A stretch of 48,223 nt of DNA, from sequence record PP925837.1. One strand, written 5' to 3'. Origin of the DNA: Escherichia phage Turner. How positions within the stretch are numbered: the stretch's first letter is position 1; each line of letters begins with the position of its first letter. Positions 43,488 through 45,603 of this stretch are shown here, piece by piece. The translations under genes and the position numbers were made by a program. The notes below the pieces were generated by a model. The model saw only the letters and a program-made list of their open reading frames with translations. It did not search any database and had not been told where the DNA came from.

Positions 43488-45014
43488 TCAAAAATAAACC
43501 TCACCATCAACCATATATTTGAGAGCACTTATCGCCTGCTGGGCGGATATTACTTTCATTAAAGGATAGTGTTTAAAAACAATGCCATTCATAAAATAGA
43601 TATCACAGGTTTTATTATCCGTATTAATTATGATTTTTTCGAATGTTTTATAGGCAAGTGTACGGCATAACTCTCGTCCATTTTTACTGGTTAAGTCAAT
43701 AGCATAAAAATCACTGAATGAATTTACACCTTTACTCTTCAAAGTTTTCAATGATACCGAAGCCCTTCTTAATTCCTTATCTAATAGTCTTATTTTCTCT
43801 GCTATAGCGGTAACTTCAGGCGCGACAGACAATGCAACGATTAAATTATTAATTTTCATCTGAAGCTCAATAATTTTTAACTCTAAAGTTTCATTAGCAT
43901 CTTTCTTGTTTTCAACTGGTTGAATTTTGCTACAATTAAAAAGCAATTCATTAATGATATTATAATCAACCAAATCTCTTTTTATTGATGGCCTGTCACA
44001 TCGATGTAATCTTCTCATCGGACAAACATAATAGCCATGCAAACTTCCAGATACCGCATGAACAATCATGGTATTACCACAAGCCTCACACTTCATAACT
44101 GTTCGAAGTAGATTTATTAGCATAGGATTCTTGCTACTATTGCTAATACCAAAAGGTGCCAACCGAATTTCCTGTACAGCGTAAAACAAATCATCTGATA
44201 TGACTCTGGGATAATAGCCAGCGATTTCACTTATCCCTTTCCCTCTTGCACGATATGAAGGTACGCATATACCTATCAGAGCTTTATTCGCTAATAATTT
44301 TTCAATTACAGAAGGTCCCCATGCACTTTCTTTTCCTGAGAAATTCTTTACAGCATGATCATTTAAATACTTGGCTATTGCATTCAATGAGCGCCTTTCC
44401 ATCCTGAGTTTAAAAATTAGCTCAATAGTTTTCACCCTGTCGGGGTCTGGAACAAAAGCCGTTCTTTTGTCATCTAAGGAAAGCCATCTCGGACAAGACG
44501 CCGTCATAATCGTACCTGATTCCAGTGCATCCTGCCGTTTTTTCTTCCATGATAATTTAACCCGACTTGACTTTATCTCGCTTTCTTCATTTGCCCTTTG
44601 TGCTATAAGTATGGCTTTTATTAATGAATATGGCTCATTCAAAGAGTCAATATTATAGACTGTATTGTCGCAAAGAGTTATAACATCAATACCGTGATTC
44701 AAAATCAATTTCAGACGTTCAATCGCTTCACCGACTTTTTCTCTTGAAAGTCTGTCCAGACTTTCAACTAACAATGTAGTTCCTGGCAATATATAACCAT
44801 GCTCTATAGCATCTAAAAATTCCGAAAAAGCTCCTGATTGTGCATGCTTTCCTTTGAATGCACTTAATCCTAAATCTTCATATGTTATGGTATCAAGATA
44901 ATAATCACTATTTACCTTTAACCATTCAGCAATAAGTCTTCTCTGTCGGTTTAATGAGTCGCCAGACATCTGACCTGGTGATGAAAATCGCATATATGCT
45001 ATGGCTTTTTTCAT
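43488..45014 (-). CDS. ybcK: large serine recombinase, YbcK-like
   Basis: 508 aa; N-terminal resolvase-type catalytic domain (YMRFSSPGQ) and Cys-rich recombinase domain; matches recalled K-12 YbcK; low-GC gene. Confidence 0.88.
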   Translation of the reverse strand: MKKAIAYMRFSSPGQMSGDSLNRQRRLIAEWLKVNSDYYLDTITYEDLGLSAFKGKHAQSGAFSEFLDAIEHGYILPGTTLLVESLDRLSREKVGEAIERLKLILNHGIDVITLCDNTVYNIDSLNEPYSLIKAILIAQRANEESEIKSSRVKLSWKKKRQDALESGTIMTASCPRWLSLDDKRTAFVPDPDRVKTIELIFKLRMERRSLNAIAKYLNDHAVKNFSGKESAWGPSVIEKLLANKALIGICVPSYRARGKGISEIAGYYPRVISDDLFYAVQEIRLAPFGISNSSKNPMLINLLRTVMKCEACGNTMIVHAVSGSLHGYYVCPMRRLHRCDRPSIKRDLVDYNIINELLFNCSKIQPVENKKDANETLELKIIELQMKINNLIVALSVAPEVTAIAEKIRLLDKELRRASVSLKTLKSKGVNSFSDFYAIDLTSKNGRELCRTLAYKTFEKIIINTDNKTCDIYFMNGIVFKHYPLMKVISAQQAISALKYMVDGEVYF

Positions 45015-45213
45015 GGTGACACCTGCTAACGTATGCTTTTATAAACCTTAGTGGTGGGATATAATTTTTGTTTAATTTTTATTTAAAAAGACAATTAAGG
45101 TCACATTATCTTGAATATACAACAATAATCGTATTGCAATTTTCTTACGCCATAATCTTGAAAGCACAAAAGAACACATAAAAAAATAAAGACATTAACA
45201 AAAAGCATAAAAC

Positions 45214-45239
45214 GAGGCTCATATAAATATAAGAGCCTC
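45214..45239 (-). terminator. hairpin terminator downstream of emrE
   Basis: gaggctc-N12-gagcctc stem, followed on the - strand by a T-rich tract. Confidence 0.45.
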
Positions 45240-45270
45240 CATATTTTAGTCGTTTAGAAACAAATTATTT

Positions 45271-45603
45271 TTAATGTGGTGTGCTTCGTGACAATAGATT
45301 AATAACCAACACACCGGCACAAATCAACATCATGCCTATAATGGCTGGCAGGTCCAGCCGTTGGCCGAAAAGTCCCCATGACAGTAAGCTAATCAGGACA
45401 ATACCGACTCCTGACCAGATAGCATAAGCAATCCCTGTAGGAATATAAGCCAGCGTCTGAGCTAATAACCAGAATGATGCACAATAACAAATAATTGTAC
45501 CAACAGATGGCCATAACCGTGTAAAACCTTCTGAAAACTTCATTAAGGTTGTACCAATGACCTCTGCAAGTATTGCACCACCAAGATAAATATAAGGGTT
45601 CAT
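45271..45603 (-). CDS. emrE: EmrE small multidrug resistance (SMR) efflux transporter
   Basis: 110 aa from ATG 45603 (MNPYIYLGGAILAEVIGTTLMKFSEGF...), matches recalled E. coli EmrE. Confidence 0.95.
   Translation of the reverse strand: MNPYIYLGGAILAEVIGTTLMKFSEGFTRLWPSVGTIICYCASFWLLAQTLAYIPTGIAYAIWSGVGIVLISLLSWGLFGQRLDLPAIIGMMLICAGVLVINLLSRSTPH

Follow-up and report, generated by a model that had tools for sequence, protein, structure and literature searches.

An efflux gene and a putative large serine recombinase gene occupy an apparent cargo slot between ren and the nin genes of Escherichia phage Turner

Introduction

How did the genes emrE and ybcK come to lie side by side between ren and the nin genes of Escherichia phage Turner? 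In the 48,223-bp sequence of this phage (PP925837.1; this whole stretch is what we call the window), emrE, which encodes a drug/biocide efflux protein, is followed by ybcK, which is predicted to encode a large serine recombinase of 508 amino acids. Large serine recombinases usually serve as the integrases of mobile elements, and the first-pass annotation of the window proposed that the two genes form a single small integrative element that carried emrE into the phage. Here, we report that emrE and ybcK are separable pieces with different boundaries and that they lie in an interval whose contents vary among lambda-like phages. The reading that we prefer, and hold with moderate confidence, is that the interval contains a composite of two pieces, one being an emrE cassette and the other an orphan serine-integrase module that was captured; the pieces would have been joined once and have since spread by recombination at the edges of the interval.

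Results

Composition and distribution of the emrE-ybcK block

Both open reading frames (ORFs), ybcK at 43488 to 45014 and the emrE coding sequence at 45271 to 45603, were confirmed on the minus strand between ren and a ninB-like gene, with an adenine- and thymine-rich (AT-rich) gap of 256 bp between them. When guanine-plus-cytosine (GC) content and k-mer composition were compared with those of the rest of the genome, the region from 43479 to 45680 had a GC content of 0.355 versus 0.500 for the window, the lowest among all 2.2-kb windows (fraction at or below, 0.001), and its tetranucleotide distance was greater than that of all 461 sampled windows. The emrE-ybcK block is compositionally foreign. 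The first-pass description of an AT-rich block of emrE and a 508-amino-acid YbcK-like gene between ren and the ninB-like gene is borne out by the ORFs, their Pfam matches, and their GC content.

The pair is already known and annotated as cargo of the DLP12 type. The arrangement P-ren-emrE-ybcK occurs at 95 to 98% DNA identity in Lambda_4C10, 4A7, 1W, 3W, D2, Perceval, and several PhiR phages, and existing phage annotations name EmrE and a "Large serine recombinase / DLP12 prophage YbcK homolog." Among 5,426 complete Escherichia coli genomes, some part of the region was matched in 4,282 and the whole ybcK-emrE-ren stretch in 1,399; a prophage of E. coli H10 is 100% identical across 43200 to 45750. 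About 79% of complete E. coli genomes have emrE, located in prophages of this kind or in a reduced remnant of one. We found no true plasmids carrying the block: the full-length matches were chromosome-sized records filed as plasmids, and on small plasmids the matches were limited to a distant qacG (68% identity).

emrE and ybcK are separable

Most of the E. coli matches cover 45263 to 45680 alone, at ~91% identity. This minus-strand interval, which we refer to as the emrE cassette, consists of the coding sequence with 77 bp upstream and 8 bp downstream. Using a synthetic "ybcK-deleted" query, with the junction matched in one piece, we found emrE directly adjoining ybcL, without ybcK, in 2,626 of the 5,426 E. 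coli genomes. Two of these genomes, UTI89 and HH45, were examined, and both carry the junction at a fliE island (positions 2899 to 6419 of the fetched UTI89 locus and 2302 to 5822 of the HH45 locus). In UTI89, the island lies between yedK and fliE and has the order porin-ybcM-ybcL-emrE, without ybcK. Only a Q remnant of about 100 bp is left of the phage there, and the segment from ybcN to Q has been deleted; the UTI89-type island is a reduced prophage remnant. The HH45 island combines a UTI89-like junction with flanks that are 98 to 99.5% DLP12-like, a pattern suggestive of gene conversion with a DLP12-type prophage as the donor.

Relative to the emrE-ybcL junction, DLP12-type phages have an indel of ~2.08 kb that comprises the ybcK leader, ybcK, and a 300-bp tail, and the flanks of this indel align on both sides. 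Because emrE and ybcL occur together without ybcK and the boundaries of the two pieces are separate, the history of emrE is independent of that of ybcK. In comparisons of genomes with and without each gene, the two did not behave as one unit.

We then fetched 80 IMG/VR loci with ybcK at 98 to 100% identity. The order P-ren-emrE-leader-ybcK was present in all 78 loci that have upstream sequence, and two loci that seemingly lacked ren or P are deletion derivatives. In these 78 loci and in all sampled genome classes, E. coli ybcK was never seen away from P-ren-emrE. Downstream of ybcK, we distinguished five breakpoint classes. The DLP12 class breaks at 43479, 9 bp past the ybcK stop codon; the window class continues into a fragment of a Rha-like antirepressor gene and an ORF of 118 codons (orf118); another class has the Rha fragment without orf118; the Perceval class shares sequence down to 43270; and the O157 class corresponds to the window type minus 43196 to 43421. 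These classes form a nested, ragged series and do not mark one recombination site. What was found is one upstream order (78 of 78 loci) with five downstream junctions, and not the same element with the same ends in several contexts.

The block replaced other sequence in a variable interval

A lambdoid genome without the insert, that of phage IdasGreatGrand, revealed discrete boundaries for the foreign segment at 43363 and 45728. This phage is collinear with the window over 40500 to 43363 and from 45728 onward, at 96% identity, and window positions 43364 to 45727 (2,364 bp) stand in place of 2,264 bp of IdasGreatGrand. The left break (43363/43364) falls inside the 202-amino-acid antirepressor gene of IdasGreatGrand, just before the residues VQQSPITKQF. 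The window retains a truncated antirepressor (Rha/Ant-like) gene of 107 codons (43053 to 43376, minus strand; Pfam P22_AR_C, 1.1e-15), which encodes the C-terminal (P22AR_C) half preceded by a new 9-residue N terminus that is read from the ybcK flank. This short 3' flank of ybcK (43364 to 43487, minus strand), as delimited by blastn breakpoints, is a constant companion of ybcK in the non-DLP12 variants, and its 115-bp piece from 43364 to 43478 was found only in loci that also hold ybcK. A clean insertion into an intact target was not what we observed, since 2,264 bp were replaced and the antirepressor gene was truncated. Instead, the alignment indicates that the block probably entered by substitution, with one illegitimate break in the antirepressor gene and one crossover in ren.

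On the ren side, the last ~10 codons of the gene (about 45671 to 45710) constitute a cargo-specific tail. The Ren protein (100 amino acids; 45671 to 45973, minus strand; PHROG 142 Ren-like, 1.8e-41) ends in ...RVLRVYKRTSMGTQ in the window and in ...RVLAIYGRTTA in phage PhiR5_1, each directly before the stop codon. In the aligned junctions, all comparators diverge to the left of ~45698 to 45728 at the ren 3' end, and each cargo type supplies Ren with its own tail. The difference in the Ren C terminus that the first-pass annotation pointed out at this junction is therefore real, as the PhiR5_1 alignment confirms, but it is the edge of a slot and not a scar specific to emrE, because every cargo type diverges at the same place.

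On the far side, the comparators (DLP12 type, Perceval, PhiR5_1, and PhiR30_1) regain homology at 42230, upstream of ninB, where a conserved region (42048 to 42230) forms the other edge. Between these edges, the DLP12 type has ybcL and ybcM, Perceval has an alpha/beta hydrolase gene, PhiR5_1 and IdasGreatGrand have a full Rha-like antirepressor gene and small ORFs, PhiR30_1 has genes for an acyltransferase and a lipoprotein, and PhiR26_1 has PD-lambda-1. Conserved modules flanking alternative contents and an atypical base composition, two marks of a lambdoid cargo module, are present here. Judging from these alignments, the interval from the ren 3' end (~45700) to 42230 behaves as a variable cargo slot of lambda-like phages. 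Within it, orf118 (42235 to 42591, minus strand; PHROG 12412, unknown function, 8e-70) is a cargo gene of unknown function that lies outside the emrE-ybcK block, is shared with IdasGreatGrand, and is present in 13 of the 80 ybcK loci; it had no match in Pfam, NCBIfam, or PADLOC.

Search for attachment-like repeats

An integrative element of the kind first proposed might be bounded by attachment-like (att-like) direct repeats, and we looked for such repeats around the block. None stood out from the AT-rich background: repeat searches around the pair or around ybcK yielded no flanking repeats above chance, and junction comparisons gave no convincing dyad for att half-sites. Three candidates were rejected. 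A 13-nucleotide direct repeat, TTTAGAAA[T/C]AAAT, that brackets the ybcK module in a DLP12-type phage was attributed to chance, its left copy matching at 9 of 13 positions in the window. An 18-nucleotide repeat at 42998 and 45696 was likewise judged to be a chance occurrence, with no with/without comparator breaking at both copies, as was a 15-nucleotide inverted repeat at 43472 and 44899, which is not conserved in the DLP12 type. Phage PhiR34_1 (positions 4338 to 4387 of the fetched locus) does have a perfect 13-bp inverted repeat, consisting of AAAATACGTGACA, a 24-nucleotide spacer, and TGTCACGTATTTT; this repeat lies inside the 300-bp DLP12-specific tail downstream of ybcK and is absent from the window.

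YbcK has the features of an intact large serine recombinase

The ybcK product matched three Pfam domains, Resolvase (PF00239, 5.5e-19), Recombinase (PF07508, 2.3e-14), and Zn_ribbon_recom (PF13408, 7.9e-08), as well as PHROG 95 "integrase" (4e-120). In an alignment of 22 family members, residues R9, S11, Q15, D87, R88, and R91 are invariant, and so are the zinc-ribbon cysteines C309, C312, C331, and C339. A profile of the YbcK family matched the C-terminal domains of the A118 serine integrase through the coiled-coil region (5e-16) and gave a weak match to the catalytic domains of phiC31 and TP901-1; a phmmer search of solved structures with the single YbcK protein found nothing. YbcK thus has the domain features of large serine recombinases, namely, a catalytic domain and the combination of recombinase and zinc-ribbon domains with a coiled-coil insert. 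We rejected assignment to the small invertases (Pin/Gin/Hin) on the basis of the 508-residue length, the recombinase and zinc-ribbon domains, and the lack of an HTH_7 domain. A role in defense was also rejected; PADLOC was blank for all five proteins submitted (YbcK, EmrE, Ren, the Rha fragment, and the orf118 product).

Between the window and Perceval alleles, ybcK has 40 synonymous and 11 nonsynonymous changes, for a ratio of nonsynonymous to synonymous substitution rates (dN/dS) of 0.07. The ORF is full length across all variants examined, and orthologues at 40 to 61% identity have the same length and the same motifs. From its domains, invariant catalytic residues, and dN/dS, YbcK appears to be an intact large serine recombinase that is under selection, in line with the original assignment.

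The gene is located in the early-right operon, between P and Q, and is preceded by an AT-rich leader (45015 to 45262, minus strand; GC content, 0.28). In K-12, the untranslated leader of ybcK contains a Rho/NusG-dependent terminator (t_ybcK), which silences the gene in lysogens, and ybcK mRNA is increased in rho and nusG mutants (PMC4150792). The leader also contains a small ORF, ylcJ (about 45072 to 45222), which in the window is frameshifted by a 1-nucleotide change in an A-run; the frameshift is also annotated in the identical E. coli H10 prophage, and ylcJ is intact (49 amino acids) in the DLP12-type phage PhiR34_1. In one study, over-expression of ybcK is reported to increase tolerance to sabinene and its deletion to decrease it (PMC7181518). 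None of the ybcK papers that we found describes a recombination assay for YbcK. During lytic growth or infection, ybcK would be transcribed by read-through of N-antiterminated PR transcription, and the expressed protein may then recombine att-like sites by the strand-exchange reaction of serine recombinases. Besides YbcK, the phage encodes a tyrosine integrase of its own (5212 to 6375) and a small serine invertase of the Pin/Gin type (196 amino acids; 11795 to 12385, plus strand; Resolvase and HTH_7, 2.5e-36), which makes YbcK the third site-specific recombinase of this genome.

EmrE and nearby hairpins

The EmrE protein (110 amino acids) matched Pfam Multi_Drug_Res (PF00893) at 3e-35 and cleared the NCBIfam EmrE model (239.6 bits; cutoff, 226). 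It is identical to the crystallized E. coli EmrE (PDB 3B5D) at 108 of 110 positions, with F79L and I101V as the two differences and E14 present. In its length (about 110 residues), four transmembrane segments, Glu14, and near-identity, it is a member of the EmrE group of small multidrug resistance (SMR) proteins. The dN/dS of emrE is 0.01 to 0.02 relative to the UTI89 allele.

About 30 nucleotides past the emrE stop codon lies a terminator-like hairpin (45200 to 45239, minus strand; stem, 45214 to 45239) with a U-rich tail. Its centroid energy is -13.6 kcal/mol (z = -2.3), and 6 of 200 shuffled sequences fold as well. The hairpin belongs to the ybcK-associated segment and is outside the emrE-only cassette. 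The fold of a hairpin upstream of emrE was not more stable than those of shuffled sequences (z = -0.35). No structured RNA or riboswitch was found near emrE (Rfam, no hit at E <= 1 across 42000 to 46100), and a scan for promoters and terminators returned site counts equal to the shuffled expectation. On our reading, emrE is a gene of benefit to the host that encodes an SMR proton/drug antiporter and has its own terminator-like hairpin after it.

Genomic contexts of the wider YbcK family

Relatives of YbcK are encoded at prophage ends, after tail-fiber or tail-assembly genes and beside ssrA, lepA, or other host genes. An Atlantibacter relative has ssrA 540 bp away, and other prophage-end relatives occur in Yersinia, Erwinia, and Ewingella. 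Further relatives were seen within nin regions of lambdoid prophages, one from an Atlantibacter-like contig and one from Pantoea dispersa, the second of which encodes a tyrosine integrase as well. A YbcK-family gene was also found on a conjugative plasmid, 1.6 kb from IncFII repA (positions 7602 to 11527 of the fetched locus), and in Citrobacter koseri another, likewise on plasmid-like DNA, is divergent from a gene for a 555-amino-acid Shufflon_N protein in a MobA/TraD region (8145 to 11530 of the fetched locus). Invertases or resolvases are typically found in such positions, next to Shufflon_N or IncFII repA.

Two members that are 83% identical, one in a nin region and one at a prophage end by ssrA, share only the ORF and 68 bp of upstream DNA. 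In "Candidatus Pantoea alvi" (positions 9256 to 12859 of the fetched locus), an inverted YbcK-family gene has a full lambda-P-like gene on one side and, on the other, what is left of a second P gene, a degenerate fragment that corresponds to residues 77 to 223. In the Atlantibacter-like contig, the recombinase gene lies between a DUF1367 fragment and a full DUF1367 copy. Among 80 loci fetched via the DUF1367 neighbor, none held a recombinase or a simple empty site for the Atlantibacter-type nin copy; a simple empty site is not seen at this locus because of the partial gene duplication there. Such contexts hint at movement as a unit; ordinary phage mosaicism can give rise to all of them as well.

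Candidate defense genes of the SIR2 family were noted in the prophages that carry ybcK-type recombinases: beside cI in the H10 prophage (positions 12197 to 13798 of the fetched locus) and in the nin region of the Atlantibacter-like contig (5755 to 7695 of the fetched locus).

Neighboring genes and other features of the window

Upstream of ren on the minus strand are P (45970 to 46671) and O (46668 to 47687). Beyond the cargo slot, the ninB-like gene (ninB/ybcN; 41592 to 42047) is followed by ninE, ybcO, rusA, and Q, all of them on the minus strand. A YdaT-domain "cII" ORF (47684 to 48223, minus strand) starts at the last base of the window, and a cI-like repressor gene lies at 339 to 1094 (plus strand); these positions suggest that the window is a phage or prophage genome in circularly permuted form, cut at the cII start codon.

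The Pin/Gin-like invertase gene is located beside tail-fiber assembly (12483 to 13058) and tail-fiber (13058 to 16423, minus strand) genes, which suggests an invertible host-range segment. A second cargo region seems to lie between the tyrosine integrase gene and the tail-fiber genes; it encodes an OmpT-like omptin (6860 to 7813), a 494-amino-acid alpha/beta hydrolase (8000 to 9484), and a methyltransferase (10029 to 10697) and includes several low-GC islands. A gene for an NmpC/OmpD-like porin (38887 to 39984, plus strand) is situated between Q and the lysis genes, and the stretch from 38301 to 39200 before it has the second-lowest GC content in the window (0.26 to 0.31).

Discussion

We favor the reading that the cargo slot is occupied by a composite, one part of which is the emrE cassette and the other an orphan serine-integrase module that was captured. 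YbcK is most likely a captured integrase gene, because its relatives are located at prophage ends, in nin regions, and on plasmids. It would now be an orphan site-specific recombinase in a phage that integrates by means of its own tyrosine integrase. We propose that emrE and ybcK became neighbors once, in a DLP12-type ancestor, and that the pair then spread among lambdoid phages through homologous crossover in ren combined with varied breaks downstream of ybcK; in the lineage of the window, an illegitimate break would have halved the antirepressor gene.

Several points weigh against this composite reading. The strong purifying selection on ybcK implies a function, which the composite reading leaves unnamed, and the reported sabinene-tolerance phenotype (PMC7181518) has no obvious tie to recombination. 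Both ends of the ybcK indel that separates emrE from ybcL are clean, and a site-specific event would explain this as well. The role of the prophage-end relatives as main integrases is itself presumed, and the term "orphan integrase" draws on family resemblance and context, because no site or substrate of YbcK was identified.

The best-surviving alternative, which we regard as possible and rather unlikely, is that the ybcK gene by itself, along with a leader of ~250 bp and a little 3' flanking sequence, forms or once formed a gene-sized self-inserting cassette, which landed between emrE and ybcL in an ancestral phage of the DLP12 type and belongs to a family that hops among phage cargo slots and plasmids. 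This idea accounts for the clean ~2.08-kb indel relative to the "empty" emrE-ybcL junction with its alignable flanks, for the restriction of shared DNA to the ORF and 68 bp upstream between the 83%-identical members in unrelated contexts, for the recurrent breakpoint 0 to 10 bp from the stop codon, and for the truncated or duplicated neighbors in three nin cases (the Rha fragment here, the DUF1367 fragment in the Atlantibacter-like contig, and the P fragment in Pantoea alvi). However, the E. coli copy was confined to P-ren-emrE in 78 of 78 loci and in 1,399 genomes, terminal repeats (inverted or direct) did not exceed the chance level, junctions at gene boundaries are a normal result of phage mosaicism followed by selection, and the window variant lacks the 300-bp tail that is part of the DLP12-type indel.

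Broader and more doubtful still is the possibility that YbcK-family recombinases in general act either as selfish cassettes the size of a gene or as second, accessory integrases. On this view, plasmids and the cargo slots of temperate phages (in the nin region or past the tail fibers) would be colonized repeatedly by way of sites that lie at the gene ends or overlap them, and truncated or duplicated neighbors would be left behind; E. coli ybcK would be one such insertion between emrE and ybcL, still kept functional by selection.

The original proposal, in which emrE and ybcK are one small integrative element that was moved by YbcK and inserted between ren and the nin genes, bringing emrE along, is not supported by these data, and we consider it very unlikely. 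The genes are adjacent, co-oriented, and both low in GC content, they form part of one foreign block relative to IdasGreatGrand, and the catalytic residues of YbcK seem to be intact. Against this, emrE occurs without ybcK and with its own boundaries in 2,626 genomes; entry into this lineage replaced 2,264 bp and broke a gene, with no clean insertion; the break in ren is common to all cargo types; there are five different downstream junctions; the pair was never found in another context or on true plasmids; and no att-like flanking repeats were found. Least likely of all is that ybcK is a decaying, functionless relic kept by linkage to emrE: Rho silencing in K-12 (PMC4150792), the frameshifted ylcJ in the window leader, and the empty target-site search would fit, but none of the variants examined has a shortened ORF, dN/dS is 0.07 (40 synonymous and 11 nonsynonymous changes between the window and Perceval), the catalytic and zinc-binding residues are all conserved, and orthologues at 40 to 61% identity keep their length.

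On the composite reading, emrE travels with inducible lambda-like phages, in a cargo slot that is prone to recombination, and ordinary phage mosaicism would explain its spread, so that a dedicated integrative element is unnecessary. YbcK is a conserved, apparently intact recombinase that lambdoid phages carry on top of their own integrase. If it does prove to move autonomously as a cassette or to serve as a second system of integration, then it would represent a new kind of small mobile unit and might also offer genome engineering a new recombinase together with its att sites.

The closest likeness to the locus is found in DLP12, Perceval, 4A7, Lambda_4C10, 1W, 3W, D2, and PhiR34_1, which have the same P-ren-emrE-leader-ybcK order and the same ren tail; the YbcK proteins of DLP12 and related phages are 97.8 to 99.8% identical to that of the window. 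They differ downstream of ybcK, with the truncated antirepressor gene and orf118 in the window, ybcL and ybcM in DLP12, and an alpha/beta hydrolase gene in Perceval. The UTI89-type island between fliE and yedK shares emrE, ybcL, and ybcM in the same order at ~90% DNA identity with DLP12-type cargo; unlike the window, it lacks ybcK, has no phage genes other than the Q remnant, and occupies a different chromosomal site. Other morons of the ren-nin interval (PD-lambda-1, Rha, and the acyltransferase and lipoprotein genes) have the same slot, the same conserved edges, and an atypical composition, whereas the cargo here includes a site-specific recombinase without an obvious benefit to host or phage. 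Finally, YbcK has the same architecture of catalytic, recombinase, and zinc-ribbon/coiled-coil domains as the large serine integrases of A118/LI, phiC31, TP901-1, and Bxb1, and some members of its family have the prophage-end position typical of integrases. Unlike the genes for those phage serine integrases, however, ybcK is located in the early-right operon of a phage with a tyrosine integrase, and the sequence similarity is remote.

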